From IMG/VR virus record IMGVR_UViG_3300035156_000134, positions 1 through 62,355 of that record: DNA of 62,355 bases. One strand, 5' to 3'. Shown here one piece after another: positions 557 through 62,355 of the stretch; position 1 is the stretch's first letter; each line of letters begins with the position of its first letter. This DNA is from a virus (Duplodnaviria > Caudoviricetes). A program made the position numbers and the translations under genes. Under the pieces are notes generated by a model. It had not been told where the DNA came from. It saw nothing but the letters and a program-made list of their open reading frames with translations, and did not search any database.

Positions 557-603
557 CTCCTCAGCAGATGAGACCTACATATACGCTCCAATGCCACTGT
601 ACA
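557..603 (-). promoter_or_regulatory. Phage promoter plus leader/RBS motif
   Basis: TGTACA (598-603)-N16-TATGTA, then CTGCTGAGGAG (557-567). Confidence 0.7.
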
Positions 604-727
604 CACTTAATTTCATTGATGCTCAAAAGATGGCCGCACCTGACTGAACAGGCACGGCCATAGGTTCCACGGAACTGTCGGGCTGCGGTAGACTTCCGTG
701 GTAAGCGAACTGTGTAGCCGGACAGGC

Positions 728-886
728 TCAGGTGTAGGTGGGCTTCCTGAGCGTCACGGGAGCACGGCCATAGTACTTCTTGATGAAGCGCTGGGCCTTC
801 GGCTCCGGCCCCTTGAACTGCTTGCGGCTGTTCAGGTAGACGGTGACGGTCTTGTCCTTGTTGTAGTTGCATTGCAGGTTAGGCAT
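728..886 (-). CDS. Small basic hypothetical protein (MPNLQCNYNK...)
   Basis: TGCTGAAAGGAG RBS at 894-905, TGTACA at 934-939; conserved in terminal repeat. Confidence 0.7.
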   Translation of the reverse strand: MPNLQCNYNKDKTVTVYLNSRKQFKGPEPKAQRFIKKYYGRAPVTLRKPTYT

Positions 887-1004
887 GGTGTTTCTCCTTT
901 CAGCATGCTCAACCTTGCACACCAACATGTTCATGTACATAATCCATATGGGCTATCAGGCCGCAAAGTGCGTAACCTACGTTAGCTTTATGGCCACTTT
1001 GTGC

Positions 1005-1175
1005 CTAATCGATGCGTTTCTCACAGTTCACACAGTACCACCCGATGGTCCCGCTGTGCCAGCGGCCTTGAGTCGAGCAGTCCTTGCACCTCGGCGGTTC
1101 CTGACTGAACAGGCGCTGCATGACCTTCTTGACCGACTCAGCATCGTCGATGTCCTGCGGTGTCGGTTCGCGCAT
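1005..1175 (-). CDS. Small zinc-ribbon protein
   Basis: CKDC...CVNC; AAGGAGG RBS before MREPT. Confidence 0.6.
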   Translation of the reverse strand: MREPTPQDIDDAESVKKVMQRLFSQEPPRCKDCSTQGRWHSGTIGWYCVNCEKRID

Positions 1176-1389
1176 CTCGTGCCTCCTTAGCAGCTGCGAG
1201 CTTGAGGATCTCGAAGATCTTGCCATGCTTAGGCATCCCCATGGACCGATGCCACTGGCTGCTGTTGCCCCACACCTCCCATGGCCTGCCTGCTCCGTAG
1301 AGCTGGCGCTTGAGGACCGCATACGGGCCGGCATGGTCAGACCGAACCACGTACTTCTCATCGTAATAGATGATGTGCTGCTCGGTCAT
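1138..1389 (-). CDS. Hypothetical protein
   Basis: ATGA overlap with upstream gene; packed leftward operon. Confidence 0.5.
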   Translation of the reverse strand: MTEQHIIYYDEKYVVRSDHAGPYAVLKRQLYGAGRPWEVWGNSSQWHRSMGMPKHGKIFEILKLAAAKEARDARTDTAGHRRC

Positions 1390-1682
1390 ACCAGCTCCAT
1401 CGGTTGGTCGGCGAGCAGGAAGATGTCCTCGCTCGACGGTTCGATCTTGGTGAAGCACGCCTGCGGCCATGCCCAATCGATCATGACAGCCGTGTGAGGA
1501 GCCGGCAAGAAGGCCAACACCTCTCGGCCACATCGGTTGCATTCGGCCACGCCGACGTCAGTCACCCTATAGGTGGCACGCAGCACAGGCTGGGGATAAC
1601 GAGGCGTGGCGATCTCAGGGTCACCACAACACGGACTGTCGAGGCTGACGCAGACCACCACGTCGTTCGTGTCGAAGCTCAT
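1386..1682 (-). CDS. Hypothetical protein (GDxVVC-type small phage protein)
   Basis: ATGA-coupled; N-terminus resembles 2259-2552. Confidence 0.65.
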   Translation of the reverse strand: MSFDTNDVVVCVSLDSPCCGDPEIATPRYPQPVLRATYRVTDVGVAECNRCGREVLAFLPAPHTAVMIDWAWPQACFTKIEPSSEDIFLLADQPMELV

Positions 1683-2764: not shown

Positions 2765-3090
2765 CAGCGTGGGTCCAATTCGTTCAGGTGCGTCCGCTTG
2801 CGAACGTTGGCCATCGTGGCCTCGAGTGTGGCATGAGCACGGTCGTACCGTAGCCGCATGTCTGCGATCTCAGTGTTCAGCTTGACAGCATCTGCCAGCT
2901 TGAGAGCGAACAGGATCTGAGCTTCACTGAGACCGATCTGAGCACCAGCGACGTCGACAAGGAACTCACCAATTGGTGCCACGCCGACGATCCTTGCGCC
3001 GGCGACAAACGGATAAAAGTCCACCCGCCAATAGGCATACGTGCAGACCGTGTCGTTCGTGTCGAAGACGGGTTTGACCTTACGCATCAT
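2764..3090 (-). CDS. Hypothetical protein
   Basis: AAGGAG RBS, ATGA coupling. Confidence 0.6.
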   Translation of the reverse strand: MMRKVKPVFDTNDTVCTYAYWRVDFYPFVAGARIVGVAPIGEFLVDVAGAQIGLSEAQILFALKLADAVKLNTEIADMRLRYDRAHATLEATMANVRKRTHLNELDPR

Positions 3091-3245
3091 GCCTTCTCCT
3101 TCAACCGAACGGCTGCGGTGTAGCCGGCACGTTGGCATGACACCATCCAGAGTCCGGCCTGATAGGCTGCTTCTTCGATGGTTTCAAACTGGTCGCATGT
3201 TTCTTGCCAATCATTGGCAAGGTGCATAGACTCAAATGTCCACAT
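3087..3245 (-). CDS. Hypothetical protein, first gene of a leftward operon
   Basis: Start MWTFES after CTGCTGAGGAG. Confidence 0.65.
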   Translation of the reverse strand: MWTFESMHLANDWQETCDQFETIEEAAYQAGLWMVSCQRAGYTAAVRLKEKA

Positions 3246-3252
3246 GGCTTGT

Positions 3253-3300
3253 CTCCTCAGCAGATGCACATTACCTACAGCCGTTGAGCAATCATGTACA
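3253..3300 (-). promoter_or_regulatory. Phage promoter plus leader/RBS motif
   Basis: TGTACA (3295-3300)-N17-TAGGTA; CTGCTGAGGAG 3253-3263. Confidence 0.8.
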
Positions 3301-3362
3301 CACATAAGTTCATAAAGCTCAAAATAAATGGCGGCGAGCCTGAGCCCACCGCCACATAGTAG

Positions 3363-3971
3363 TCAGACCATCTTGTTGCCGATGTCCATGTCGGCTTCAG
3401 GATCATCCCGATCATTGAGTTCACCGAGCACCTCCTGCATGGAGACGTCAAACGACTCGAGCAGCGTGTCCACCATCATGGCCAGCTTGTCGGCCACGTC
3501 CTTTCGGCTGCCGTTCTTGCCGGCCATCTTGGCGATCGCGTAGGTCATGATCACCGTGCCGATCAGACGCCGCCGCTCGATCTGCTGCATCGCCTCAGGG
3601 AACTCGTCGACATGTTCGACCGAGCCCTTGATCGACCGGGTGACTGTCTCGCCCCTGACGCCGCCACCTCCGACTCCCATGATCGGAGTCGAGTTGGCCT
3701 CGAACGCTTTGGTCAGCTCATCCTCAATGCCAACGAACTGAGGGATCGGCATAGTGATGTCCATCGGATCCAGACCGGCGTGACGCATAAAGATGTCGGC
3801 CATTTCATTGCAGGCGTCGGGCACGGCCAGACAGGCGAGCTGGGACATACCGGCATGGAGGATGGCGAGCTGGCCAACTGCACTTTGATGGGCGACCACG
3901 TCCATGCCCGTACGTAGGGTGAGCATCTGGATGAGCTCTTCGGTCGACGGAACTGCGTTCTCGGTTTGCAT
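3363..3971 (-). CDS. Hypothetical acidic protein
   Basis: 202 aa, CTGCTGAAGGA RBS at 3980-3990, hairpin downstream at ~3328-3355. Confidence 0.8.
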   Translation of the reverse strand: MQTENAVPSTEELIQMLTLRTGMDVVAHQSAVGQLAILHAGMSQLACLAVPDACNEMADIFMRHAGLDPMDITMPIPQFVGIEDELTKAFEANSTPIMGVGGGGVRGETVTRSIKGSVEHVDEFPEAMQQIERRRLIGTVIMTYAIAKMAGKNGSRKDVADKLAMMVDTLLESFDVSMQEVLGELNDRDDPEADMDIGNKMV

Positions 3972-4016
3972 ATTGTATATCCTTCAGCAGCCGCCACCAT
4001 GGCGGCAGGCCACACG

Positions 4017-4068
4017 GATCTACCCTACGAACTTGACAGTGTACATTGAAGAATGGCCGAGATAGCCT
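4017..4068. promoter_or_regulatory. Bidirectional promoter sharing one palindromic -35 box
   Basis: TGTACA 4040-4045; + strand N17-TAGCCT, - strand N17-TAGATC; sits at the strand switch. Confidence 0.7.
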
Positions 4069-4094
4069 GATGCCACTGCTGAAGAGGAACCACC

Positions 4095-4334
4095 ATGATC
4101 TTGATCACTGCCCCATCCAATGGCAACTACATCTGGGTCGTCAAAGACCCGGCTGATGCCCGAGCCATCGCACTCAAGACCGGGTTCCCAACCATCGAGC
4201 AGGCCAAGGATGACGGCCTCGGGTTCATCCTCATGTTGAAAGAAGAGCAGGACTCATGCAACCCAACCCATACAACTACGACGATGAGCCCATCGAAGAT
4301 GAGCCAGTCGCTTTCACAGCCCTCGGCTGCGTGA
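4095..4334 (+). CDS. Hypothetical protein
   Basis: CTGCTGAAGAGG RBS at 4076-4087. Confidence 0.55.
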   Translation: MILITAPSNGNYIWVVKDPADARAIALKTGFPTIEQAKDDGLGFILMLKEEQDSCNPTHTTTTMSPSKMSQSLSQPSAA

Positions 4335-4423
4335 TCGCCTTAGCCTCGGCGTTAACGGTGCTGACCTTGGTCGGCCTCGGCGTCCGCTGGCTGGTCCAGA
4401 CTGCTTGGTCGGCTGTGTCATGA
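4256..4423 (+). CDS. Small membrane protein (55 aa, below ORF-track cutoff)
   Basis: MQPNPYNYDD...hydrophobic stretch; stop overlaps next ATG. Confidence 0.45.
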   Translation: MQPNPYNYDDEPIEDEPVAFTALGCVIALASALTVLTLVGLGVRWLVQTAWSAVS

Positions 4424-4692
4424 TCCCTCGCGTGATCGCCGGGTTCACCCGAGCCTTAGCGAAGCCGAAGAACTGGGATGAGGCGAAGAACGGTCCGTGC
4501 CTCGGCCTCCCGATCCTGGACCACGTGGACGAGAACGGCGAGCCGAGCATGATCAGTGCTTGGCAGCCGACTGACGAAGAGATCATCCGCATTATGGAGG
4601 GTGCACCCGTGTATCTTCGTGTGCGTGGGACCATTCATCCGCCTGTCGGCATCTGGGCCGGCGACGCACCTGAGGACCAAGGCGGCGCGTAG
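4420..4692 (+). CDS. Conserved-type phage hypothetical protein
   Basis: PKNWD..GPC.GLPI..SAWQPT.EE..HPPV pattern. Confidence 0.7.
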   Translation: MIPRVIAGFTRALAKPKNWDEAKNGPCLGLPILDHVDENGEPSMISAWQPTDEEIIRIMEGAPVYLRVRGTIHPPVGIWAGDAPEDQGGA

Positions 4693-4708
4693 CGAGCCAA
4701 CGTTTTTA

Positions 4709-4737
4709 TGTACTAAGGTCCAAGCGGTTGCTACATA
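4709..4737 (+). promoter_or_regulatory. Promoter of candidate sRNA
   Basis: TGTACT-N17-TACATA with T-tract upstream; predicted +1 at ~4744-4745. Confidence 0.65.
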
Positions 4738-4743
4738 TTCCTC

Positions 4744-4831
4744 TGTCAGACCATGGTCGGGTCCTAGCGGACCGGACTCCCGCGTGCCTCGTCGCCGCCT
4801 ACTCTCCTTCAGCAGCGGCCATGGTCTGGCA
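4744..4831 (+). ncRNA. Candidate small RNA antisense to the shared phage leader/RBS motif
   Basis: 16-bp closing stem 4744-4759/4816-4831 with two G-U pairs valid only on + strand; inner hairpin 4760-4773; CTCCTTCAGCAG at 4804-4815; no credible ORF. Confidence 0.65.
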
Positions 4832-4836
4832 CTCCA

Positions 4837-4865
4837 TGTACATCGTCGAGACTTTGAGGTAGAGG
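4837..4865 (+). promoter_or_regulatory. Promoter of holin-like gene
   Basis: TGTACA-N17-TAGAGG. Confidence 0.55.
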
Positions 4866-4914
4866 CCGTGGCTGGCATGCCCTGCAGGGTCTAAGCCGAC
4901 AACGGGAGAACCTC

Positions 4915-5142
4915 ATGAAGAACATCATCGAGTTGCTCAAGGGCAAGAAGACCTACATCGTCGCGATCATCGCCGTCTTGGTGTCGCTGCTGGGCTATCT
5001 GGACGGCTCCATGTCGAGTGTGGAAGCCCTCTACGCGGTCCTGGCAGCTCTCGGCTTCACCAGCGTACGCGCCGGTTCGAAGACCGATGCGATCGCAGTG
5101 ATCGAGTCGAGGCCGACCAACAACTCCAACGCCGTTCCGTAA
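4915..5142 (+). CDS. Holin-like small membrane protein
   Basis: 75 aa, LKGKKTYIVA start, two hydrophobic helices. Confidence 0.6.
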   Translation: MKNIIELLKGKKTYIVAIIAVLVSLLGYLDGSMSSVEALYAVLAALGFTSVRAGSKTDAIAVIESRPTNNSNAVP

Positions 5143-5164
5143 GCGAGAGCTGTCGGGTTGCAGG

Positions 5165-5205
5165 GAAACCCTGGCTGACCAAGCGGTTGGCCAGGGTTTC
5201 TTTTT
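5165..5205 (+). terminator. Rho-independent terminator
   Basis: GAAACCCTGGCTGACC/GGTTGGCCAGGGTTTC stem plus TTTTT. Confidence 0.9.
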
Positions 5206-5264
5206 GCCTGTTTACAAGATGCTCGGAACTACGTTACCACCAAGCCCCTGCTGTAGGAGGTTTC

Positions 5265-5660
5265 ATGCTTAGACCGAACGATGTAATTGGCTGGTTCAAC
5301 CTCCGATCCCAGAAAGGGATGGGGGAAATGGCCCAGCTCACCGACGGGCTGCTAGTTGGTGGACAGATCGTGATTGGCGGGTCCGAGGCCAATATCAAGA
5401 AGGCCCACTCGTTTATGGCCGGCCGCGCCCGCATGGGCCGCATGGCTTCGATCAAGGACGCAGTGCTCGACCCGGACAAGCCGACCACGTTCGACACGCC
5501 GGCCATCGTCCAGCTGCTGCTGATCCAGGCCAACGAAACCTTCCACTCGACTGCTGACACGCTCCTCACGATGATCCAAGACATCACCGATGACGGCCAT
5601 GACGTGTCGGTTGCCCTCCAGCTCGCTCGCGAGCAGGTCAACGCCGTCCACAAGCTCTAA
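5265..5660 (+). CDS. Hypothetical protein
   Basis: TTTACA promoter at 5211 and CTGCTGTAGGAG RBS at 5248-5259. Confidence 0.7.
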   Translation: MLRPNDVIGWFNLRSQKGMGEMAQLTDGLLVGGQIVIGGSEANIKKAHSFMAGRARMGRMASIKDAVLDPDKPTTFDTPAIVQLLLIQANETFHSTADTLLTMIQDITDDGHDVSVALQLAREQVNAVHKL

Positions 5661-5669
5661 GGGTCAGAC

Positions 5670-5978
5670 ATGAAGAACCAGACACAGGCCGTCAAGGATG
5701 TGGTCGCCGAGCGCCTTCGCCAGCAGACCGAAGAGGGTCACACCATTGAGTCCGACGTGAAAGACAATCTGCCCGGCGAGATGGCGCTTGGCGCAGCTGC
5801 GATGGCAGCCCAGACCGGCACGATGATGGCCCGAGGCGAAGACGCAGTCCGCGGAGGAACTCCGTCGCTGTGGCCATGGCCGGCCGGATACAAGTGGCAT
5901 GACGAACGACGGAACCTCGTGATCGCCGCGGCCCTGATCCTGGCCGAGATCGAGCGTCTCGACGCCAGCAAGCAATAG
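5670..5978 (+). CDS. Conserved phage hypothetical protein
   Basis: DVVAERLRQ..EG..WPW..RRNLVIAAALILAEIERLD pattern common in phages. Confidence 0.8.
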   Translation: MKNQTQAVKDVVAERLRQQTEEGHTIESDVKDNLPGEMALGAAAMAAQTGTMMARGEDAVRGGTPSLWPWPAGYKWHDERRNLVIAAALILAEIERLDASKQ

Positions 5979-5982
5979 ATGT

Positions 5983-8112
5983 ATGGCAACACCGTCGAGT
6001 GCACGCAAGGTCAAGCGTGCGACCAAGAGTAGCGTCCCGAAAGGGAGCTCAGCCGAGACCAAGCTGGGCGTAGAGAAGCTGCTGACCTCAGGCCTGTCGA
6101 TGCAGGACGCTGTAGATCTAGGCATCGAGATGCTCTCGGGCTTTCAGACTGCAGCGCTGCATCCGAGCTTCGCCGCCAAGGCCAGCTTGAAGCTGAACTA
6201 CTACGACCTGTCGGGAGCCCCACTGAAGCCTAGGCCGAAGTGGCCGGACTTCTATCGGATCCGGTACCTCGAGGACGTGACCGATGAGGTCAGCTTCGAG
6301 GCAGCGACCGACAAGAAACCACTTCGCTACACCAACGAGCCCGAGGCCGGTGTTGCTGCCTACTTCCCGAAGATCGTGGATTGGTTCGAGCTAGCGGGCG
6401 ACCCGCACAAGCCCCTGATCATCACCGAGGGCGAGCTGAAGGCAGCCAAGGCCTGTAAGGAGGGCTTTGACTCCATCGGGCTCGGTGGCGTGTTCAACTT
6501 CAAGAGCGTGCGGAACGGGATCCCCTTCCTGCCCGAGCTCGAGGAGATCGACTGGGTCAAGCGGATCGTCTACATCTGCTATGACAGCGACTACCGCACG
6601 AACCCGAACGTTTGCATCGCCCTGAACCAGCTGGCTGAGGAGCTGGTGGAGCGGGGCGCTCTGGTCTACGCGCTGAGCCTGCCGGACATGCTGGACGACG
6701 GCAAGACGGGCCTGGACGACCTGCTCTGCAACGCGCCTGACGCCAACAACATGATGCGGGGCCTGCTCAGCGCTGCGGAGCCGATCGGGCTCGCTCGGCC
6801 GCTGTGGCAGCTGAACGACAAAGTCGTCTATGTCCGGGACCCTGGCCTCATCTTGGTTCGCAAGAGCCAGCAGAAGATGTCGCCCGAGGCGTTCAAGAGC
6901 CATGCGTTTGCAACCGTGAACTATACCGAGCAGCTGCTCAGGTCCGACGGCGAGATGAGCTACAAGAAGGTTGGCGCTGCGGGCCCGTGGATGAGCTGGC
7001 CGCTTCGGGCTGAGGTCACGCAGCTGCTCTACCTGCCGGGCGCTGAGAAGATGGTGCCGGACCAAGACGGGCTGGCCTTCAACATCTGGAAGGGCTGGGG
7101 CTGCGAGCCGATCAAAGGCGACATCGGCCCATGGAAGCAGCTGCTTGACCACCTGTTCGTCGGCGCTGACCCTGAGGACCGCAAGTGGTTCGAGCGGTGG
7201 TGCGCCTACCCGATCCAGAACCCAGGCGTGAAGCTCTTCAGCGCCTGCGTGTTCCACGGGACCAAGCACGGCACGGGCAAGTCCCTGGTCGGCTACATGC
7301 TTGGTCGCATCTACGGGAAGAACTTCGTCGAGATCAACAAGGACAATCTGACGGCGGGCAACTACGACTGGGCCGAGGCCAAGCAGTTCGTGCTCGGCGA
7401 TGAGGTGACCGGCTCTGCCAAGCGTGATGTGAACGACATGCTGAAGAAGCTGATCACGCAGGAGTCGTTCCGCATCAACATCAAGTACGTGCCGACCTTC
7501 GAGATCAAGGACGTCATCAACTACTTCTTCACCTCGAACCACCCGGACGCCTTCTTCATGGAGGACAACGAGCGCCGCTACTTCATCCACGAGATCAAGA
7601 CAGGTCCGCTCGACGATGCCTTCTACGAGATGTTCGATGAGTGGATGAAGCGGGGGCCAGGGCCGAGTGCCTTGTTCCACTACATGCTGAACCTCGATCT
7701 GGGCGACTTCAACCCACACGCGCCGGCTCGGAAGACGGTGGCTCGTCAGCGCATGATCGCCGACACCAAGTCAGACCTCGGCGAGTGGGTGCATCGGCTC
7801 CTGGCGGACCCGGACAGCATGCTGAAGCTCGGCCATGTCCACGCCGACCGGGATCTGTTCACGAACCGTGAACTGCTAGTCATGTATGATCCTGAGCAGC
7901 GGACGGGCACGACTGCCAACGGCCTCGGCCGAGAGCTCCGTCGGTCCGGCGTCACGCTCGCGTACGATGGCGGCGTGTTGCCGGGCAAAGACGGCTCGGA
8001 CCGCTACTACATCATCCGCAACCTCGACAAGTGGGTCGGCGCGAACCGCCAACAGTTGGTCAAGCACCTCGACGCAACGAAAAAAGTTCGCAGCACAAGC
8101 AAAAAGTTCTAA
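5983..8112 (+). CDS. DNA primase-helicase (DUF3854/Toprim-like + SF3-type NTPase)
   Basis: ITEGELKA, YDSD, KTGLDD primase motifs; GTGKS Walker A, DE Walker B, TSNH, RRY. Confidence 0.9.
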   Translation: MATPSSARKVKRATKSSVPKGSSAETKLGVEKLLTSGLSMQDAVDLGIEMLSGFQTAALHPSFAAKASLKLNYYDLSGAPLKPRPKWPDFYRIRYLEDVTDEVSFEAATDKKPLRYTNEPEAGVAAYFPKIVDWFELAGDPHKPLIITEGELKAAKACKEGFDSIGLGGVFNFKSVRNGIPFLPELEEIDWVKRIVYICYDSDYRTNPNVCIALNQLAEELVERGALVYALSLPDMLDDGKTGLDDLLCNAPDANNMMRGLLSAAEPIGLARPLWQLNDKVVYVRDPGLILVRKSQQKMSPEAFKSHAFATVNYTEQLLRSDGEMSYKKVGAAGPWMSWPLRAEVTQLLYLPGAEKMVPDQDGLAFNIWKGWGCEPIKGDIGPWKQLLDHLFVGADPEDRKWFERWCAYPIQNPGVKLFSACVFHGTKHGTGKSLVGYMLGRIYGKNFVEINKDNLTAGNYDWAEAKQFVLGDEVTGSAKRDVNDMLKKLITQESFRINIKYVPTFEIKDVINYFFTSNHPDAFFMEDNERRYFIHEIKTGPLDDAFYEMFDEWMKRGPGPSALFHYMLNLDLGDFNPHAPARKTVARQRMIADTKSDLGEWVHRLLADPDSMLKLGHVHADRDLFTNRELLVMYDPEQRTGTTANGLGRELRRSGVTLAYDGGVLPGKDGSDRYYIIRNLDKWVGANRQQLVKHLDATKKVRSTSKKF

Positions 8113-8120
8113 ATTGGCTG

Positions 8121-8197
8121 TGTACATGCGGGCTCACGGTGATACGCATGATCCTGCTGAAGGAGCGCCGACACGCTTAGTGCCCCTTCTGCTTTTT
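8121..8197 (+). promoter_or_regulatory. Promoter and leader with motif inside a terminator-like hairpin
   Basis: TGTACA 8121; CTGCTGAAGGAG 8154-8165 pairs imperfectly with GTGCCCCTTCTGC, followed by TTTTT. Confidence 0.5.
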
Positions 8198-8217
8198 GAA
8201 ACACGAAGGAGGCCACC

Positions 8218-8421
8218 ATGGCAGACGAAGCAGAAAAGACCCAGAAGGCGATCGACAAGGCCGTGAAGACGGCCCGCAAGGAGCAGATGACCGCCGTGAC
8301 CGGGGCGATCAAGGACGCCAAGACGGCGGCCGCCGAGCTCGAGGACAAGGGCCAGAAGAAGGCCGTCTCGACCGCTCTGACCGACCTGATGCGTGCCGTC
8401 AAGGACGCGGTCGCCGAGTAA
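8218..8421 (+). CDS. Small Ala/Lys-rich helical protein
   Basis: AAGGAGG RBS; strong codon bias. Confidence 0.8.
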   Translation: MADEAEKTQKAIDKAVKTARKEQMTAVTGAIKDAKTAAAELEDKGQKKAVSTALTDLMRAVKDAVAE

Positions 8422-8505
8422 ACCCAACAATGGGTTTGGACATTCACAAACCGGACGCTTAGACTCACAAGGTCGGCGTCCGGTTTCGTCTGGAAGGAAG
8501 ATCAC

Positions 8506-8974: not shown

Positions 8975-8986
8975 GGGAGACGGACG

Positions 8987-10245: not shown

Positions 10246-10257
10246 AGGAGATGAGCC

Positions 10258-10389: not shown

Positions 10390-10411
10390 CTCAAATAAGT
10401 GAAATTAGCTG

Positions 10412-53679: not shown

Positions 53680-54426
53680 CTAGCGAACCCGCTGGATGGC
53701 GAACGCCGCGGAGTTAATAGGCCCGAAGCTGCCGCCGTTGTCATAGTAGACGAACGCGCGGAGCTGTTGGCCTGCCGTCAGCGGCATGAGGCGGCTGTTG
53801 TACGAGCCACTGCGGTTGGGCGCCGTGACCGACCACTGGAAGCCGGGCGAGTCAGCGTTGATGATATCGATGCCGAGCCCGTGGCTGATGCCAGCACCTG
53901 GGCCACCGCCCTGCGGATCCGCTACCCGAACCTTGAGCTGGCAGTCATAGAGGCCGGTCTGCTGAACCGTATACTCGTTGCGGTTGATCTTGTTCCAACC
54001 ACCGTGCGTGTCGGTCGTGGCCGGCCAAGCGTTGCCGCCATTGGCATTGTCCCACGCTATTGTGGTGAAGGCATTTGCCGTGTTGTAGAACGGGTTGGCG
54101 TCCGAGTTGTTGCGCTCGACCACCAGGACCGGCCAATCCGGCACATGCGCTTTGGATAGGTACGCGACTGAGACAGTGGCACTAGTCGAGACGTTGAGCA
54201 GCGCGCCGGTCGAGCTGGCCGAGAGGCCGCGCGCCAGCGTGCCATTGAAGGTGTACGCGCCGGTGCCAGTTTCCCACGCGGTGCCGTCAATGATCAGATA
54301 CTCGACCTGGGTGACGCCGCTCGTCCAGACCGTGTTGAAGTGCCGATAGCCCGGGACAGCAGCCCCTAGGGTCAAGGCGCCAGTGCCGCCACCCGCCACA
54401 GTTGTCATGACGCGGTCAGCGATCAT
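53680..54426 (-). CDS. Probable virion fibre protein with C1q/TNF-like C-terminus
   Basis: ADRV.TT..GTG.LTLG N-terminus; Y.V..TGLY..L.AG.QL. Confidence 0.6.
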   Translation of the reverse strand: MIADRVMTTVAGGGTGALTLGAAVPGYRHFNTVWTSGVTQVEYLIIDGTAWETGTGAYTFNGTLARGLSASSTGALLNVSTSATVSVAYLSKAHVPDWPVLVVERNNSDANPFYNTANAFTTIAWDNANGGNAWPATTDTHGGWNKINRNEYTVQQTGLYDCQLKVRVADPQGGGPGAGISHGLGIDIINADSPGFQWSVTAPNRSGSYNSRLMPLTAGQQLRAFVYYDNGGSFGPINSAAFAIQRVR

Positions 54427-54710
54427 GCGGAATATCCTTCAGCCCAGGCCGTAAGCCGGTTCCATTGAGCAATCGTCGGAGCCCAGTTCGGGTTGGCTGT
54501 GGCGGTCTCCAACTGTGCTAGCACCGACTGCTCAGCTACGGTGAGGTCGTACTCCCGAGCTTGCTCCATCCACGCTTCAAGCTGCTGGCGGTTCAGAGGC
54601 AGGCTCAGATCCACGCGAAGCGGTGGGCCACCCCGGACCGGATCACCGTCGGCCACGACTGGCGGGTTCGGTGGCCTAGGGTTCCTGGCCTTCTTCGGCG
54701 CCAGGGCCAT
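54423..54710 (-). CDS. Hypothetical protein
   Basis: Coupled ORF. Confidence 0.6.
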   Translation of the reverse strand: MALAPKKARNPRPPNPPVVADGDPVRGGPPLRVDLSLPLNRQQLEAWMEQAREYDLTVAEQSVLAQLETATANPNWAPTIAQWNRLTAWAEGYSA

Positions 54711-55418: not shown

Positions 55419-55574
55419 TCATTCGTAGACGTAAGGGTGAACCAACTCTTTGGTCTGGCGGTCCAGCTCCTCGAGATGGTTCAGCTTCGCCGTCACCGAG
55501 AGGCTGGCCACCAAGATGACGATGGTCATCAGGTTCGCCAGCAGGATGACGAAGAACAGCTTGACGGCGCTCAT
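55419..55574 (-). CDS. Small membrane protein (51 aa)
   Basis: ATGA-coupled to upstream gene; N-terminal TM. Confidence 0.5.
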   Translation of the reverse strand: MSAVKLFFVILLANLMTIVILVASLSVTAKLNHLEELDRQTKELVHPYVYE

Positions 55575-57550
55575 TGGACCTGGCCGATGGCGTTCAAGAT
55601 CGCCTGGCGCTTCGGCGTCTCACTCAGCGGCTGAGCAGCATACTCACGCATGCCCCACGCGCCGTATTGGCTGATGGTGCCGGTGTGGCTGTACATCGTG
55701 AGGTTGTCACCGATGTCCCGCTTCCACTCGGCCAGAAACAGGTCGTACTGCTCCTTCATCCGAGGGTCACGCTGCATGGCTTCAGCCACCACTGCAGTCG
55801 GCCCGTTCGGGCTGATGATGTGCTGACCTGCCTCGTAGGTGATGTAGCGCAGGCCGAACTTCTGCGCCAGCCGCCAGTTGGCCTTGGCCCGATCCAGTGT
55901 GAACACCCGCTGCGCGGCTAGCCGGGTGAACGCGGCATCCAGGTCGCTCACCGTCAGCTTGTCGTTCGGCGGATCGAAGAACGAGTGGCCAAAGTACGGG
56001 GCCGTGGCGAAGGCGTCGTGCCACTTCGCTGTGTCCTTGAACTCCAGCACCCGCTCACCAGCCCAGGGGTTATCGTTCTGGGCTGAAATGACCCGGACCA
56101 ACTTGCCGGGCTGATCAGCGAAGATCGGCGTCAGGATCTTCATCATCTCGGTCGACTTCTGGCCGAGGCGATAGAGGTGGTTGGTGTAGCGGTCTGCCGC
56201 CAGGCCTTGGGCGACGCCCTCGTTCAGCGCCTGCGTGGTTTGGCCGAACTGGAAGTTCCAGACCTCGTTTGACAGCTCGTAGTAGGCACTGCGACCCGGC
56301 TTGAGGTTGGCACGGACATATTCGCCGTGGCGCTTGATGTAATCCGCATCCGCGTTCCAGGGGATGGTGAACCAGGCATCGCTATCCGCGGCGTTGGCCA
56401 GGGCGACCATGTGCTCCACAGCCGTACCGTCGTTGCCACCGCTGGTCGGCGTGGACCGGGTGGCCCAGGTCACTAAGGGTGGGTTCCCGTTGGCGGCCGA
56501 CCAGTCCAGGAAGCGAAGCAGCTTGAACGGCTTCACATCGTCGACGTAGCGCTTGTCGAACACGCCGACCTGCTCAACGCCTGGCTCCCGGCAGTCGAGG
56601 TTCCGGAAGTCCTTGGCGCCGGTCACATAGAGCAGCAGCGACGGTCGACTCTGACCGATCTTGCTGAAGTCAAAGCCGCGCCAGGTGAAGATGACCGACC
56701 CGCTCTCGCTGTAACCACCAGCGTCTGAGTCAACCCGGACCTTGCCGAAGCCCTCCCACGTGCAGGTGACTGAAGTGGCCTTGTTGGCCCACACGGCCTG
56801 CGGCACGTTGATCGCCAGCACACCGGACGAGACCGGGTAGCCATAGGCGTTCAGCTTGTCACGCGGACTGTCATCGTTCCAGCTGACCGCTGGGTCCTTC
56901 CAGCCGCCGGCGCCGTAGGCCAGGTTAGCCCAGACCCGCTCGGTCGCATAGTAGACCGGGCCAGAGACGTTCATGCCGATCACGGTCGGCTTGATCGGAC
57001 CAGCCGGCGATGGAGTCGGCGTGGGCAGCGGGACTGGCGTCGGAGTAGGCGTCGGGCTCGGGGCCGGCAGCGTCGACACGTCGGTGTTGAACTCGCAGGC
57101 CTTCTTGACGTTGACGGCTGGATCCCCGAAGACCTCGTTCGAGCAGACCACGACGCCGGTCTGGACCAGCTTGAAGTTCCACTTGCCGGGCACCCCGTAG
57201 CGGACCACGGCTGGCGTGATCGGCCCACAGACATCATCCTCCAGGCCACATGCAACCCAGCCGCTCGGCTTGGGAGTCGGTGTAGGCGTGGGGACCGGCG
57301 TCGGGGCAGGCGCTGGCAGCTTCGCCAGGAAGGCCTTCCGAGCGTTGACCGCGTCCGTGGCGATCACGCCAGCCCGGTTGAAGCAGGCGATGCCCGTTTC
57401 CAACTTGGTCCGGTTGGTCTGGTCAGCCTTGGGTACGGCCGTGCTGCCGCAGTTGCTAATGGTGGGCGGTTTGGCCACGGTTGTCTGCGCTTTGACGGTG
57501 GCAACACCGCTCATCAGCACAGCGACCATGAGGAAGGCTCGTTTTGTCAT
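55571..57550 (-). CDS. Exported glycoside-hydrolase-like protein
   Basis: Signal peptide, PT linkers, Cys module, LRFLDW, ELSNEVWN, YEAGQH. Confidence 0.7.
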   Translation of the reverse strand: MTKRAFLMVAVLMSGVATVKAQTTVAKPPTISNCGSTAVPKADQTNRTKLETGIACFNRAGVIATDAVNARKAFLAKLPAPAPTPVPTPTPTPKPSGWVACGLEDDVCGPITPAVVRYGVPGKWNFKLVQTGVVVCSNEVFGDPAVNVKKACEFNTDVSTLPAPSPTPTPTPVPLPTPTPSPAGPIKPTVIGMNVSGPVYYATERVWANLAYGAGGWKDPAVSWNDDSPRDKLNAYGYPVSSGVLAINVPQAVWANKATSVTCTWEGFGKVRVDSDAGGYSESGSVIFTWRGFDFSKIGQSRPSLLLYVTGAKDFRNLDCREPGVEQVGVFDKRYVDDVKPFKLLRFLDWSAANGNPPLVTWATRSTPTSGGNDGTAVEHMVALANAADSDAWFTIPWNADADYIKRHGEYVRANLKPGRSAYYELSNEVWNFQFGQTTQALNEGVAQGLAADRYTNHLYRLGQKSTEMMKILTPIFADQPGKLVRVISAQNDNPWAGERVLEFKDTAKWHDAFATAPYFGHSFFDPPNDKLTVSDLDAAFTRLAAQRVFTLDRAKANWRLAQKFGLRYITYEAGQHIISPNGPTAVVAEAMQRDPRMKEQYDLFLAEWKRDIGDNLTMYSHTGTISQYGAWGMREYAAQPLSETPKRQAILNAIGQVQ

Positions 57551-57558
57551 TGGCTGAT

Positions 57559-57614
57559 CTCCTTCAGCTACGGGGTGGAGGCGTCTGAATATAGCCTGGG
57601 CCGTTTGATGTACA
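57559..57614 (-). promoter_or_regulatory. Phage promoter plus leader/RBS motif
   Basis: TGTACA-N17-TATTCA; GCTGAAGGAG 57559-57568. Confidence 0.75.
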
Positions 57615-57912: not shown

Positions 57913-58182
57913 TCACGACTTGGCCTCCTTCAACTTCGCCACCACCAGATCAAAGTGCTCGACCACATGGATGACTCCGCCGTCCTCGACACCGGAGTTC
58001 ATCGTGATCCAGGTGCCGTCCTCGACCCAGCGCTTGTCGCTCAAAGCCGCGAGCTTGTCGTCTTCGTGGCAAACCAGCCTCGGGCTGAACGACTCGATCC
58101 GGTCGACGTTGACCACCACCGGCGTCGCAGCGGAGCGTCCATAGATCCTGGACGGCTCGGTAAACATCACCATTCGTAACAT
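57913..58182 (-). CDS. Hypothetical protein (FlbD-like pattern)
   Basis: VN.D.IESF..GT.ITM..V.E..D.V..KL; motif RBS. Confidence 0.7.
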   Translation of the reverse strand: MLRMVMFTEPSRIYGRSAATPVVVNVDRIESFSPRLVCHEDDKLAALSDKRWVEDGTWITMNSGVEDGGVIHVVEHFDLVVAKLKEAKS

Positions 58183-58189: not shown

Positions 58190-58236
58190 CTCCTTCAGCT
58201 TGATCCCGGCTTAAGCCGCTTGGGATAGTCTGTACA
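58190..58236 (-). promoter_or_regulatory. Phage promoter plus leader/RBS motif
   Basis: TGTACA-N17-TAAGCC; GCTGAAGGAG 58190-58199. Confidence 0.8.
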
Positions 58237-58270: not shown

Positions 58271-58492
58271 TTAGCTGTAGCGCTCGAAGTCTTCGGCCGC
58301 AACTACGAGGCCATCGAAGTCCTCTTCGGACCCGAGCACATCCGCCAACTCGATCAGTTGATCCATGGGCACATTGTAATCGTCGGACAGGGACTCGAGG
58401 TACGCAAAGCGGCTCTCGTATCCATGGTCGGCATAGACCGAAGTGCCAGGTGCCTCTGCATTCACACGGTCCTTGGTGGCCTGGCTGATCAT
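58271..58492 (-). CDS. Small acidic conserved-type phage protein
   Basis: GY.SR..YL.SL.DDY..LA..LG..EDFDGLV. Confidence 0.75.
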   Translation of the reverse strand: MISQATKDRVNAEAPGTSVYADHGYESRFAYLESLSDDYNVPMDQLIELADVLGSEEDFDGLVVAAEDFERYS

Positions 58493-58722
58493 GCCGGGTC
58501 GCCCGCACCGTTCGGCGCAACATACATGGCGATGACTTCCCAGACGATGTCATCTGAGTTCTTCGACGTCCTGCCACTATATAGCGCGGACATCAACGTC
58601 TTCGTGTCAGCCTTGACGGTGTTGGTCGTAGCGTACGCAGCTGTCTCGGCGTGCCAGCCACCGAAGGTGCTCTCGTAGTGGATGCCGTCCTTTCGGATGA
58701 CGATCAATTTGAAATGTGGCAT
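58489..58722 (-). CDS. Hypothetical protein
   Basis: ATG after TGCTGAAGGAG. Confidence 0.7.
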   Translation of the reverse strand: MPHFKLIVIRKDGIHYESTFGGWHAETAAYATTNTVKADTKTLMSALYSGRTSKNSDDIVWEVIAMYVAPNGAGDPA

Positions 58723-58728
58723 CTTGGT

Positions 58729-58779
58729 CTCCTTCAGCATTGTGGCTCTGTTCATACTGTGGCGAGATGGCCCTGTACA
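58729..58779 (-). promoter_or_regulatory. Phage promoter plus leader/RBS motif
   Basis: TGTACA-N17-TATGAA; TGCTGAAGGAG 58729-58739. Confidence 0.8.
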
Positions 58780-59039
58780 CACATATTTTCATTACCTCGA
58801 AGCTCTCGCATCTTCAATCCAAGCTCGCGTCTCGTCAGAACAATGGCGCCGAGTTCCAAAGCGACTTTGCGTCTAGTTAGCGACACGTCATAGTGCGGAA
58901 AGCTTGTCGGTTGAAACCAGGTGCGGCGCATGCCGATCTGATCAGCCACGGCGTGTAGCTCGTCAAGTGTGTCAGCAATCATGTGACACATCTTCATGCG
59001 ACCAAGTGGGTTCCGGGCTTCGTCGACATAGACACTCAT
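58752..59039 (-). CDS. DUF4031 family protein
   Basis: MSVYVD..MCHMIADTLDELH..A..IGM.R.WFQ..HYD. Confidence 0.85.
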   Translation of the reverse strand: MSVYVDEARNPLGRMKMCHMIADTLDELHAVADQIGMRRTWFQPTSFPHYDVSLTRRKVALELGAIVLTRRELGLKMRELRGNENMCVQGHLATV

Positions 59040-59206
59040 GCTCGAGCTTCTTTGATGGTCGCGAGCAATGCTTCCATGTCTGTGTCTTCCTCGACGGCTC
59101 CGTGCTCGATCATTTCGTCTGCGAAGTCCTGATCAGACTGTGGCATATCGAAACCGTTGGCGACGCAGTTGGCGATATTTTCTTTGATGATCTCGAGCAA
59201 TGTCAT
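59036..59206 (-). CDS. Small acidic protein (56 aa)
   Basis: MTLLEIIKENIAN...; CTGCTGAGGAG RBS; ATGA coupling. Confidence 0.7.
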   Translation of the reverse strand: MTLLEIIKENIANCVANGFDMPQSDQDFADEMIEHGAVEEDTDMEALLATIKEARA

Positions 59207-59212
59207 GGTGGG

Positions 59213-59260
59213 CTCCTCAGCAGATGCACGATGCCTATTTCACTTTGAGACTTATGTACA
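59213..59260 (-). promoter_or_regulatory. Phage promoter plus leader/RBS motif
   Basis: TGTACA-N17-TAGGCA; CTGCTGAGGAG 59213-59223. Confidence 0.8.
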
Positions 59261-59282
59261 CACTTATTTTCATTATCCAAAT

Positions 59283-59360
59283 TCCCCGGAAATGTACCGG
59301 GGTGGCTGGCCGCGGTTCGGCCACGGTACAAGGGGGGACCGCGCGATGAGCCCTAGTCCC
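59283..59360 (-). ncRNA. Second candidate structured small RNA or long leader
   Basis: Downstream of TGTACA(59384)-N17-TACGAT; nested stems; no RBS/ORF. Confidence 0.35.
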
Positions 59361-59702
59361 ATCGTACCACGACCTCACATCAATGTACACAACTATTTTC
59401 ATTCAACCGCATTTATTTTGAGCTCCGCACAGAGCCGCCACGATCATCGAGCTGCCGACACTGTAACTAGCTATCCGCGTATACACGGCTGTGTTCACCA
59501 CGCACCTACGCACAAATGAACATTGCGTCTGTGCTACGCGTATACTATGACCATGTACAGAGCGTCCGCGCTAGCACGACTGTAGACCGTGCTCACACTG
59601 CACACGGTACCGTGCACGTAGCACTCACGTTCACAGCAATGTTCATTTGACTGTGTGCAATGTTCATAACCATGTACGCACGGTGTCCTAGCGCTAGCTG
59701 CC

Positions 59703-60182
59703 TCAGGCAGGCTCTGCGCCTGGTAGCGGTGTGGTGGGATCTTCAGCGCCTGGAAGTTTCAGCGGCTCGGCTCCGACTGCGTTGAGAATGTTGTTGAGCA
59801 ACCCCATCACCATGTCCTGGTCACCAAGCCCATCGTCTGCCTGGCTCAGCTCGACATGCTCCTTAGGTTTCCCGTACGCCCGTGAGAGCAGGCGGTCAGC
59901 GCACTCCATGCGGATGGATGGGTGGACGGCTGGATCCAGTGCGATGTCGCTCATCACCTTGACCATGGCCTCGGTCTTGGGCACAATCAGCTCACGCAAA
60001 CGGTTGGCGCGCTCAACACCCTGCCGTTGGGCTGTGAGCTTGGTCTCCAGCTGCGCCTCACCTAGCCCATGGCCCGCCATGACGCGGTCTGTCTTCTCGA
60101 CTGGGTCCTTGACCGCCCGAGCCCTTGAGCCTCTAGGCTTCGTGGCGCCTTTCTTCACGGGAACTGGGTCCGCCTTGGGCAT
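59703..60182 (-). CDS. Putative terminase small subunit
   Basis: Basic N-terminus, R...AD.LL.RAYGKP motif. Confidence 0.55.
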   Translation of the reverse strand: MPKADPVPVKKGATKPRGSRARAVKDPVEKTDRVMAGHGLGEAQLETKLTAQRQGVERANRLRELIVPKTEAMVKVMSDIALDPAVHPSIRMECADRLLSRAYGKPKEHVELSQADDGLGDQDMVMGLLNNILNAVGAEPLKLPGAEDPTTPLPGAEPA

Positions 60183-60673
60183 TGGTGTGGTCCTCACATA
60201 TCCGAGCATCTCTGTACTCTGAGCCACTGAGTTCGAACATATCGGTGTGCGGGTAGCTCGTCCGCTGCCGGTGGGACCCTCCAGGCTGAAATAACGGAAA
60301 TAACACAAAGAACAGATCCGTTTGGCCGCATTCTGATAGCTGATGGCCCAACCAAATCAACAGCTTAGGCTCAGTTTGGTACAGATTAACAGATCCTACC
60401 CTTCTCTTGTATCTTTGAAGAGATAGAAGGTGGTATAGTAATAAGGATGGTTAGGGTTTACATTCCTATGGAAGTAGAAGGTTGGCCGTCAGAACACAGT
60501 TTCTGTTAATTCCGTTAGGAGGTCCAGGTTTTCGTCTGTGGAGGCCCATCAAAGCGCATCAGCCGCGCCATGCGGTCCCAACACATTCGTTCTGTTCTTT
60601 TGCGGGAACGGAATTTCCGTTATCTTCATAGGCCACGACCGCGTGGCTATGCGAACAAGGGTGTAGACATACA

Positions 60674-61291
60674 ATGCCATACCAATTCAAGCAATTTGCT
60701 GCCGGCCTCTCATACGAGGAAGTAGAGGAGCAACGACTCATCGAAACATGGATCGACCTGATGAACGCCGAGGAAGAGTCCAAGTTGCAGGGCGTCAAAG
60801 CACAGTACCTCACAAAAGACCAGATGTCGGACAGAGCGACTAAAATCAAGGCCGTTATTGGCAAATTGGGGTATGATCCAGCCCAACCACGGCCATCGCG
60901 CCAACGTGGCAGACCAAGAGACGGAGCGATCCCGAACCCATTGCCGCCACTGCAGACGAAGCTAACCTCATGCCTCGGTGAGCAGTACACCATCGTGGCC
61001 TACGGCCGGTCGCCCAGGAAGCTCGGCGAAACATTCGACATGGTGGCGTATATCGATGAGCGTGGCAAGCTCGTGTTCAGGAACCTGGTCAACCTGTTCT
61101 GTGGCATGTTGCCTTCAGGCATTCCGACTGTGACGTGGCCAGAGGATCCTAGAGGTCTGAAGCCTGGCGAGAAGATCCCACTGTCCAAGCGCCGAACAGC
61201 CTCGAAGCAGGATCTGAAACGTGACCGTGACGAGATGGACGAAGATCTGAAGCAGCACAAGGCTCGGAAGGCCTCAGGCCGCATGTACTGA
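60674..61291 (+). CDS. Hypothetical protein
   Basis: Isolated 205-aa rightward ORF after AT-rich region. Confidence 0.65.
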   Translation: MPYQFKQFAAGLSYEEVEEQRLIETWIDLMNAEEESKLQGVKAQYLTKDQMSDRATKIKAVIGKLGYDPAQPRPSRQRGRPRDGAIPNPLPPLQTKLTSCLGEQYTIVAYGRSPRKLGETFDMVAYIDERGKLVFRNLVNLFCGMLPSGIPTVTWPEDPRGLKPGEKIPLSKRRTASKQDLKRDRDEMDEDLKQHKARKASGRMY

Positions 61292-61388
61292 TCGCCTCAG
61301 ATGGCCGTCCCAAGCATCCCAGAAGCGCAATGCGCAGGACGAATGATAGTACGGCCATCTGGTAATCAACGGCGCGTCTGCGGGTACG

Positions 61389-61640
61389 TCACGTGTCGGT
61401 GCGTTGGATATCGAAGATGCTGATGGACGGCGTCAACCGGTCCTGCTCGCGGAGTTGGGTGAACATGGTGGGCTCGTTGAAGAGCTTGCGGTGGAGCTTA
61501 TCCATCCGCTTGATCAGCGCCTCAGCCTGTTTGGCTACAGGTCCCTTCCTGTGGTTCGCATCAGCGAAGCCGTCACGGTCCTGGCATGCGTAGTGCAGGG
61601 CTAGTGAAATGGTCTGAAGGTCGGACTTGGTGAAGGTCAT
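61389..61640 (-). CDS. Hypothetical early protein
   Basis: Coupled to upstream gene; conserved in copy at 1-172. Confidence 0.75.
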   Translation of the reverse strand: MTFTKSDLQTISLALHYACQDRDGFADANHRKGPVAKQAEALIKRMDKLHRKLFNEPTMFTQLREQDRLTPSISIFDIQRTDT

Positions 61641-62355
61641 GAGCGGTAGTCCTTATACTTCTCCCACTGCGCAGCCTCGAGCACTTCTCGGGCGAGAGCT
61701 CGTGGATCATTATGGCCTGCACCGATCTCCTCCAAGGCCTTGGCCATGCGGGCACCGGCCGAGCCGTAGACGGACTTGAAGACCTCGTTGTTGAACCGCT
61801 TCATGCCGGCCTCGTCGCTGGCCTGCTCACGGGCCGCCACCTTGACAGGGTCATGAGTCCCGCAGTAGCCGTTGGCCTTGGGCTTGTGGCTGCACTGCTT
61901 GTAGGTGGGCCAGCGGCCGAGGTAGGTCGTCACAGCTGCCTTGCAGCGGTTAGGGTCGACAGCGCGCTTGGCATCCGTGATGCCGCCGCTGCGTGGGCTG
62001 TAGTCGTGAACAGGCATGCCGTGTCTCCTCAGCAGATGAGACCTACCTAAGCCGCTCCAATGCATCTGTACACACTTAATTTCATTGATGCTCAAAAGAT
62101 GGCCGCACCTGACTGAACAGGCACGGCCATAGGTTCCACGGAACTGTCGGGCTGCGGTAGACCTCCGTGGTGTACGCGAAACTGGTAGCCGGACAAGCTC
62201 AGGTGTAGGTGGGCTTCCTGAGCGTCACAGGAGCACGGCCATAGTACTTCTTGATGAAGCGCTGGGCCTTCGGCTCCGGCCCCTTGAACTGCTTGCGGCT
62301 GTTCAGGTAGACGGTGACGGTCTTGTCCTTGTTGTAGTTGCATTGCAGGTTAGGC
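61472..62355. repeat. Terminal direct repeat, copy 2
   Basis: Diverged copy of 1-884. Confidence 0.95.
61637..62017 (-). CDS. Zinc-finger-like early protein (allele of 169-549)
   Basis: Same protein with conservative changes; TGTACA(62067)-N17-TAGGTA and CTGCTGAGGAG 62025-62035. Confidence 0.8.
   Translation of the reverse strand: MPVHDYSPRSGGITDAKRAVDPNRCKAAVTTYLGRWPTYKQCSHKPKANGYCGTHDPVKVAAREQASDEAGMKRFNNEVFKSVYGSAGARMAKALEEIGAGHNDPRALAREVLEAAQWEKYKDYRS

Follow-up and report, generated by a model that had tools for sequence, protein, structure and literature searches.

The phage genome of IMG/VR record IMGVR_UViG_3300035156_000134 (hereafter the window, which is the whole assembly, a single contig of 62,355 bases) raises the question of why many of its genes are preceded by one and the same sequence, (CT)GCTGA(A)GGAG, which is longer than a Shine-Dalgarno (SD) core, and of what might read it. 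A sequence-only reading of this genome had proposed that the motif is the target either of an RNA encoded at 4744-4831 or of an RNA-binding protein. As described below, the motif is a selected, extended ribosome-binding site, and almost every promoter-like module of the early or middle kind is followed by a first gene that uses it. The RNA half of the proposal is partly supported by comparative evidence, namely an exposed 12-nucleotide (nt) complement of the motif, the conserved position of the leader that holds it and changes in both sequences that match by lineage. The best reading, to which we give about even odds, is that this leader works as an anti-ribosome-site RNA with many early and middle mRNAs as its targets.

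All 17 copies of the motif listed in the sequence-only reading were present, with the reported sequence on the reported strand, and four more were found, at 10242 (plus strand), at 30490-30498 and 54434-54443 (minus strand) and at 4804-4815. The first three of these precede start codons, and the last is a minus-strand copy that reads as the complement on the plus strand. Measured against 200 first-order Markov simulations of the window, CTGAAGGAG occurs 13 times with 0.65 expected (simulated maximum 4), CTGCTGA{1,2}GGA nine times with 0.34 expected (maximum 2), all nine being intergenic, and TGTACA 27 times with 5.4 expected, 18 of them within the non-coding 10% of the genome. A looser form of the 9-mer, with one mismatch allowed, is not enriched (34 versus 27.9 expected; 13 of 100 shuffles reach 34). 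The claim that conservation continues past the SD core was borne out: CTG precedes 17 of the 40 genes with A(1-3)GGA[GAT], against a background of 2.3% (binomial 5.5e-18), which indicates that the extension is real.

With a motif-bearing gene defined as one in which the motif ends 4-12 nt before the start, 19 of the 84 genes predicted by a simple codon-usage caller qualify. Fifteen of the 18 promoter-proximal genes, those with T[GT]TACA 35-85 nt upstream, carry the motif, compared with four of the 66 others (Fisher 1.8e-10), and at promoter-proximal genes it lies 5-8 nt from the start codon. Sorted by class, it is found before 8/19 early-like genes, 8/31 genes of replication and nucleotide metabolism and 3/34 structural and lysis genes. 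The comparison with structural genes came out as the sequence-only reading had expected, the motif being commoner before non-structural genes (16/50 versus 3/34; P=0.016), but its statement that head, tail and lysis genes lack the motif is only nearly true, as three copies precede genes of the structural block. Two further statements, that nearly every copy lies just downstream of TGTACA and that the motif marks the first gene of operons, hold for most copies, the former through the 15/18 association; however, four copies in the window, and several in a relative (L179), have no promoter-like module. These copies indicate that the motif belongs to the start of translation and not to that of transcription. 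Two copies in the window have no start codon, the one at 8154-8165 and the minus-strand copy at 4804-4815. A possible role of the UGA within the motif, to stop translation of the gene upstream, was rejected as not general, since a first gene has none upstream and those seen upstream in L179 have TAA stops. In these genomes the extended motif could aid the calling of start codons and operon starts.

The complete module consists of an A/T-rich AATGAAAWTAAGTG or AAAATAGTTG, TGTACA or TTTACA, 17 nt, TAGnnn, 7-29 nt, the motif, 5-8 nt and ATG. A sigma-70 consensus scan of 3200-10600, a region with seven TGTACA modules inside it, called none of them, because the second hexamer lacks the final T. The equivalent modules of relatives are canonical (AAAATAGTTGTTTACA-N17-TATAAT, that is, TTTACA-N17-TATAAT), and by position and homology the TGTACA modules are treated here as promoters.

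The element proposed as a partner of the motif lies behind a promoter-like module of its own at 4709-4737 on the plus strand (TGTACT, 17 nt, TACATA), whose -10 hexamer is aligned by the covariance model described below with the conserved TAnAAT of relatives. The core of the putative structured leader RNA spans 4745-4830, where a predicted helix (4745-4758/4817-4830) closes about 58 nt, and the fold z-score is -3.4 on the plus strand versus -1.7 on the minus strand. Directly 5' of the closing strand, at 4804-4815, stands the sequence CUCCUUCAGCAG, hereafter the anti-motif, which is the exact 12-nt complement of CUGCUGAAGGAG and whose bases have unpaired probabilities of 0.41-0.99 in the predicted fold. 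The longer GTCTCCTTCAGCAGCGG is invariant in four relatives of the same clade, and the window has a C in place of its first G. Outside the element, perfect matches of 10 nt or more to 4797-4822 occur at 14 sites, of which ten coincide with ribosome sites, one with the orphan copy (8154) and three with coding sequence. Counted as ten-mers, there are 29 matches to 4797-4822, with 3.9 in simulations (maximum 12).

Positions 4837-4914, up to the ribosome site of the next gene, hold either the remainder of the leader or another module of the promoter-like kind (TGTACA, 17 nt, TAGAGG). The gene behind it, at 4915-5142, encodes a 75-aa protein with no family match in a library scan, has GGGAGAACC and not the motif as its ribosome site, and has a homologue behind the leader in L001, an IMG/VR contig with 65% primase identity. 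Directly 3' of this gene, at 5156-5205, there is a strong hairpin with a T run, which the terminator scan did not call, probably owing to its long loop; if it terminates transcription, the leader and gene 4915-5142 form a short unit of their own. In the window, Rfam gave no family at the gathering score, C4 included, and ARAGORN no tRNA or tmRNA.

L001 has 11 copies of GCTGA(A)GGAG in 22 kb, 16 of TGTACA and an element at the same place, in which 18 identical bases (TCTCCTTCAGCAGCGGCC) stand between helices that differ in sequence; the architecture is common to L001, L133, L134 and L135. A profile search with four primases yielded 80 loci. Of 79 IMG/VR loci, 70 have CCT(T)CAGC[AC] no more than 1.4 kb upstream of primase, as do Stenotrophomonas phage AXL3, Pseudoxanthomonas phage PW916 and uncultured phage MW202621. 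In 53 of 66 distinct sequences it stands 80-230 nt upstream of the primase match. The typical leader is about 200 nt long, begins behind TTTACA-N17-TAnAAT and comprises, in order, a closing helix P1 around an unpaired invariant CCUCAGCA, ACACC, a hairpin Pa (loop GGCUGAGC), a second hairpin (loop NNGCUGAGG) and the primase start; CCTCAGCA is invariant and unpaired in the family consensus.

Thirty-two of 45 non-redundant typical leaders were aligned, the other 13 (L212, L194, L184, L183, L157, L170, L195, L210, L207, L169, L187, L190 and AXL3) being left out because they aligned poorly by eye. Within this 32-leader alignment, P1 and Pa are 92.7% paired, compared with 69.0% in shuffles and 31-45% in slid controls, and their covariation score is 0.643 versus 0.214 (0/500 shuffles reach it). 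A covariance model (R1) built from 36 leaders, none of them from the clade of the window, recovered 14 further loci at E<=0.012, seven of which were leaders that had been left out. Rfam 15, searched at E up to 1 on five relatives, gave no match near the leaders. By sequence comparison, the family leader is a new and widespread RNA family, absent from Rfam, with more than 70 examples. The element of the window is taken as a diverged member of it. It has the helix, the core with an extra U and the CAC, it stands 1.2 kb upstream of primase, and an alignment of the five-member clade keeps the closing helix; the covariance model did not find it with default filters and scores it weakly, so that its homology rests on synteny, core sequence and architecture.

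Two other scans for relatives were set aside: one of viral contigs with the 14-mer CATCTGCTGAGGAG gave at least 119 stretches, almost all chance matches, and one with a 17-mer gave a single known relative plus L129, a false lead with its TGTACA copies in coding sequence. As a separate observation, in leaders of the L154 type (e.g. L175, 5960-6040) an AUG stands 5-6 nt past the GCUGAGG of the second loop and opens a short frame running into the primase start in another frame, which may be a regulatory upstream open reading frame.

The comparison of lineages bears on both cis and trans pairing. Within the leaders, the bases 5' of CCUCAGC are complementary to those 3' of the GCUGAGG in the second loop: over 35 distinct leaders this extension averages 0.94, versus 0.38 in permutations, and 0/5000 reach it. 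This covariation indicates that the stretch pairs in cis with a ribosome-site-like loop, which in AXL3 is the primase ribosome site itself. For pairing in trans, cognate complementary k-mers per kb outside the leader were counted for 39 distinct anti-motif types and compared with permuted assignments, with 270 nt masked, so that long leaders may keep a cis partner unmasked. The counts were 0.255 versus 0.130 at k=10 (0/5000), 0.119 versus 0.048 at k=11 (0/5000) and 0.041 versus 0.016 at k=12 (16/5000); as the lineages are related and permutations ignore shared ancestry, these figures are not true probabilities.

Individual lineages illustrate the correspondence. The clade of the window has ribosome sites of the form CUGCUGAAGGAG(A) and a leader stretch (U)CUCCUUCAGCAG, AXL3 and PW916 have GCUGAGGAG and CUCCUCAGC, and L179 has eight or nine copies of UGCUGAGGAC(C) with GGUCCUCAGCA in the leader. 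Likewise, CUGCUGAGGAAC is matched with GUUCCUCAGCAG in L199, GCUGAGGACC with GGUCCUCAGC in L201, L202 and L209, and (C)CUUGCUGAGGA(G) with (C)UCCUCAGCAAGG in L195 and L185. For L195, with CCUUGCUGAGGAG at ribosome sites and CUCCUCAGCAAGG in the leader, the ribosome sites match the stretch over 13 nt and the cis loop over 7 only.

From these data the following scheme may be proposed. The ancestral role of the stretch would have been to hide a ribosome site within its own leader, and in most relatives the cis partner with which CCUCAGCA pairs is a hairpin loop downstream in the leader, whose GCUGAGG resembles a ribosome site. In the clade of the window this cis partner is gone and the complement is on some 15-19 other mRNAs instead, with which the leader RNA would base-pair in trans at early and middle ribosome sites, so that translation of early and middle genes would be tied to the level of leader RNA. 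Pairing in trans is favoured because 15-17 bases, including CAGCAGCGG, are invariant though the cis partner is gone, and because the complement stands on first genes. The probable effect would be that sites are masked as leader RNA accumulates, with late genes, mostly free of the motif, escaping; alternatively, the leader may be titrated by its targets and thereby opened. The simplest reading is that translation of early and middle genes is shut off with a delay, because this RNA and its targets have the same type of promoter and it would build up in the course of infection. Transcription of the leader in this phage and its pairing in cells are what we infer from the comparison.

A wider proposal, offered tentatively and with clearly less than even confidence, is that this leader of the replication operon has a second role as an anti-ribosome-site RNA, acting in trans on a regulon that spans the genome, that lineages keep their early and middle sites complementary to it as an RNA-based clock for shut-off or coupling, and that the same logic applies to the start-associated sequences of unrelated phages. 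If the pairing is real, it would amount to a simple RNA device that makes early and middle operons one translational unit, and to natural orthogonal pairs of ribosome site and anti-site.

Besides the shared ancestry behind the permutation figures, several points weigh against pairing in trans. It demands one RNA acting on about 17 mRNAs, and duplex energies do not separate targets well: with the 25-nt anti-motif region, 48 of 83 ribosome sites reach -15 kcal/mol, versus a mean of 16.6 for shuffled anti-motifs. The four CATCTGCTGAGGAG copies pair with the anti-motif only via a bulged U. The A/U insertion in the clade of the window is a single evolutionary event; many lineages, e.g. those of the L175 type (CCCUCAGC), show no excess of cognate ribosome sites; CTGAGGAG sites are abundant in L148 and L149 too, whose stretch would mismatch them; and in MW202621 the ribosome sites follow the leader on the 5' side only, not on the 3' side. 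As for the leader itself, its inferred promoter at 4709-4737 was not called by the sigma-70 scan, and the sequencing runs that contain the window sequence are DNA runs of biocrust metagenomes only, one of which is probably its source. Window positions 4728-4839 are the best model match within 3000-9000, but a weak one (9.1 bits, E=0.22 in 12 kb), and the match in L134 is weak as well (E=0.71).

Among the other explanations, the one that survives best combines a house-style ribosome site with a purely cis-acting anti-SD leader, the shared sites having arisen from promoter-leader cassettes that were duplicated or homogenised by recombination; we consider it unlikely. The covarying downstream loop and the identity of that loop with the primase ribosome site in AXL3 are what it would predict, as is the AUG 5-6 nt behind the loop in L154-type leaders, and in L134 the ribosome site of the downstream gene, read by eye, pairs with the 5' part of the stretch. 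The CATCTGCTGAGGAG leaders of the window are, moreover, 66-72% alike over 61 nt, which marks them as paralogous cassettes; yet most motif leaders have only the -35, the -10 and the motif in common, and not the spacers. Nor does cis pairing account for the clade of the window, in which the gene behind the leader has GGGAGAACC or similar and no CUGCUG, yet CAGCAGCGG is invariant in five genomes, or for L195 and L185, whose distant ribosome sites match the stretch over 12-13 nt, versus 7 nt for the cis loop.

A phage RNA-binding protein, either a repressor or a nuclease in the manner of RegA or RegB of T4, might instead read GCUGA(A)GGAG on mRNAs and on the two GCUGAG loops of the leader, the complementary stretch then regulating only the leader's own loops. 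The two invariant GCUG.G hairpin loops of the family leader do look like protein-binding hairpins, many small genes have no assigned family, and control of early mRNAs by RegA and RegB through SD-region motifs provides a precedent. However, such a protein would leave unexplained the 12-nt complement kept in a clade that lacks a second GCUGAGG-type loop, and scans of 60 of the 84 predicted proteins with PHROGs and of 20 with Pfam showed no RegA- or RegB-like family; a protein reader is considered rather improbable.

A DNA-level asymmetric operator, comparable to the stoperators of cluster A mycobacteriophages and with the leader copy as one inverted site, would fit an asymmetric sequence that lies in non-coding DNA, nearly always in one orientation, and all its copies change together between lineages, as they also would with a co-evolving DNA-binding protein. 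That the copies stand 5-8 nt before start codons with an SD core, including those of genes inside operons, that the sole inverted copy is part of an RNA in which the helices on either side of it covary, and that a DNA site has no need of hairpins around the GCUGAG copies of the leader make it very unlikely. The last alternative, in which the motif has no phage-specific partner and reflects longer pairing with host 16S rRNA (UGAGGAG can form pairs with the 3' tail of 16S rRNA up to and including the final base) or the needs of transcription starts (in most window copies the motif begins 7-13 nt past the -10-like hexamer), is very unlikely as well, since the extension varies by lineage (CUGCUG, CCUUGCUG, GGAC, GGAA, extra A) as the leader does, whereas the 16S tail hardly varies, and the transcription-start version was rejected because the distance from the second hexamer to the motif varies (7-29 nt) while that from motif to start is constant, and because of the promoterless copies.

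The individual sites are distributed as follows. On the plus strand, CTGCTGAAGAGG at 4076-4087 precedes gene 4095-4334, CTGCTGTAGGAG at 5248-5259 gene 5265-5660, CTGAAGGAGA at 10242-10251 gene 10258-10389 (no promoter-like module) and CTGCTGAAGGAA at 10453-10464 gene 10473-10886 (TTTACA module upstream). GCTGAAGGAGA is found at 15623-15633 before gene 15639-16238 (Nmad5 domain; without an upstream TGTACA), at 18620-18630 before gene 18638-18886 and at 22593-22603 before gene 22608-23513, which resembles enzymes dependent on pyridoxal phosphate (PLP). The copy of CTGCTGAAGGAG at 20398-20409, before gene 20416-21435, is complementary to the anti-motif in 12 of 12 positions, and the orphan copy of the same sequence at 8154-8165 stands behind a TGTACA module and is followed on its 3' side by a weak hairpin with a T5 run, reaching about 8200. 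This orphan lies in the leader of the post-primase gene (8121-8205 in the window, 12150-12225 in L001, 8125-8195 in L134 and 8090-8165 in L133), which carries a motif-like sequence with no start codon; in relatives that sequence is paired with its own complement in a local hairpin (e.g. GCUGAGGGAGAUG...CAUCUCUCAGC), and the arrangement suggests a second conserved leader with a structure based on this motif.

On the minus strand, the CATCTGCTGAGGAG subtype reported in the sequence-only reading was confirmed at all four of its positions: 557-570 before gene 169-549, 3253-3266 before a 52-aa open reading frame (3090-3245), 59213-59226 before gene 59036-59206 and 62025-62038 before gene 61637-62017. 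The first and last are duplicates within the terminal repeat, positions 1-884 being an imperfect direct repeat of 61472-62355 with 90-97% identity, and are therefore not independent. The repeat, which carries a duplicated 126-aa gene plus its promoter-leader module, could be a diverged terminal redundancy or the assembly of two variants. GCTGAAAGGAG at 894-904, before gene 728-886, lies just beyond the mapped repeat, and its counterpart would lie past the end of the window. The remaining minus-strand copies are GCTGCTGAAGGAT at 3979-3991 (gene 3363-3971), CTGAAGGAG at 30490-30498 (gene 29785-30480, in the structural and lysis block), GCTGAAGGAT at 54434-54443 (gene 53680-54426, a weak tail-fibre match; no promoter-like module), GCTGAAGGAGA at 57558-57568 (the 659-aa gene 55571-57550, at the head of the minus-strand block), GCTGAAGGAG at 58190-58199 (gene 57913-58182) and TGCTGAAGGAGA at 58728-58739 (gene 58489-58722).

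From the perspective of its gene content, the window is a siphophage-type genome with 61% G+C. The plus strand from 4095 to 26454 encodes primase, ligase, DNA polymerase, exonucleases, helicase and nucleotide-modification enzymes; the minus strand from about 57550 down to 26451 encodes terminase, portal, capsid, tail, tape measure and a lysozyme-like protein; and the minus-strand stretches 62017-57615 and 3971-169 hold small genes without an assigned family. The set at 15639-26454, with the Nmad5 domain, two thymidylate-synthase-like genes, a kinase-like gene, a PLP enzyme, a pyrophosphohydrolase and a dCMP deaminase, is typical of thymidine hypermodification. Two gaps of about 0.5 kb, 59207-59702 and 60183-60673, have no called gene, and the former has two more TGTACA modules (59384 and 59554) with no motif behind either. 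Inside the 619-aa gene 51817-53676, a 55-nt unit is repeated five times at 52462-52900 with a spacing of 63-126 nt, which suggests that the protein contains a repeated module. When the first 20 kb were compared with isolated phages by Megablast, none proved close at the DNA level; the DNA polymerase is 48-49% identical to those of AXL3, PW916 and MW202621, and the hosts of the nearest isolates are Stenotrophomonas and Pseudoxanthomonas.

Several known systems resemble parts of this arrangement. In T4, RegA and RegB control many early mRNAs post-transcriptionally through a short SD-region motif and spare late genes; the readers there are proteins, whereas the candidate reader here is an RNA. 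Leaders that hide an SD sequence in cis are familiar from translational attenuators, the expression platforms of riboswitches and RNA thermometers. The relatives of the window are like them in that their CCUCAGC pairs, with covariation, with a GCUGAGG loop of the same RNA, but differ in that the complement is also on distant genes in several lineages. No paper on the motif or the leader was found, the motif strings occurring only in unrelated primers among the literature matches listed, and the AXL3 paper has no text on promoters, SD sequences or RNA motifs.

The closest match to the motif itself is the start-associated sequence (SAS) of cluster K mycobacteriophages, which the original description presents as an asymmetric repeat of about 13 bp with an SD core, in 11-19 copies located 3-7 bp before starts (PMC3203893). 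According to the same paper, SAS copies occupy the non-structural half of the genome in one orientation, apart from a single opposite-orientation copy in four K1 phages; conservation includes positions unable to pair with 16S rRNA, and whether 'RNA or protein' is the partner is left open (PMC3203893, Pope et al. 2011). In a 2025 paper the function is still called unverified (PMC12699233). The likeness lies in an asymmetric SD-core repeat near start codons, in the non-structural bias and in one inverted non-coding copy, here at 4804-4815. The differences are that SAS have the consensus GGGATAGGAGCCC, actinobacterial hosts and another phage family, and that they often occur with ESAS, 17-bp imperfect inverted repeats upstream of about half of the sites, whereas the conserved parts upstream of the window motif are -35-like and -10-like elements. 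Furthermore, the description of SAS proposes no RNA with the complement, whereas here a conserved structured leader holds the complement.

In mycobacteriophage Anaya (L213), the region 34850-34900 holds the inverted SAS copy, within a 385-bp gene-free gap between genes 96 and 97, and on the sense strand this copy falls in the loop of a predicted hairpin (z = -4.0). Conservation of the stretch extends to 133 cluster K records, and seven phages retain the hairpin. DarthP has an unchanged SAS (13 exact copies) and a homologous hairpin loop that differs (8/10 pairs); the loop drifted while the SAS stayed the same, so there is no co-variation there, and the parallel, for the Anaya type only, is suggestive.

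In mechanism, the nearest analogue is the c4 RNA of phages P1 and P7, which is transcribed together with its target operon and, as an antisense RNA, masks the ribosome site of that operon. Citron and Schuster reportedly described in 1990 that matching changes in this RNA and its target set P1 versus P7 specificity. The parallel lies in a phage RNA that stands upstream of its target within one operon and pairs with the target's ribosome-site region; sequence and covariation support this for the relatives, while in the window the cis partner is lacking and the leader is a putative transcript. In contrast to the roughly 15-19 ribosome sites across the genome proposed here, c4 has one target operon; it also has a different fold, the window being without an Rfam match or tRNA-like gene, and it serves immunity in a temperate phage, whereas no integrase was found among the 60 proteins scanned here. 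The c4 operon and the role of its RNA are described in PMC8198154. Over-long repeats at gene starts have been known in phages since 2011 without a mechanism, and the leader described here is a concrete candidate for their partner RNA in this phage group. The arrangement as a whole combines an SAS-like start motif with a putative anti-ribosome-site antisense RNA, both of which are kinds of element already known.

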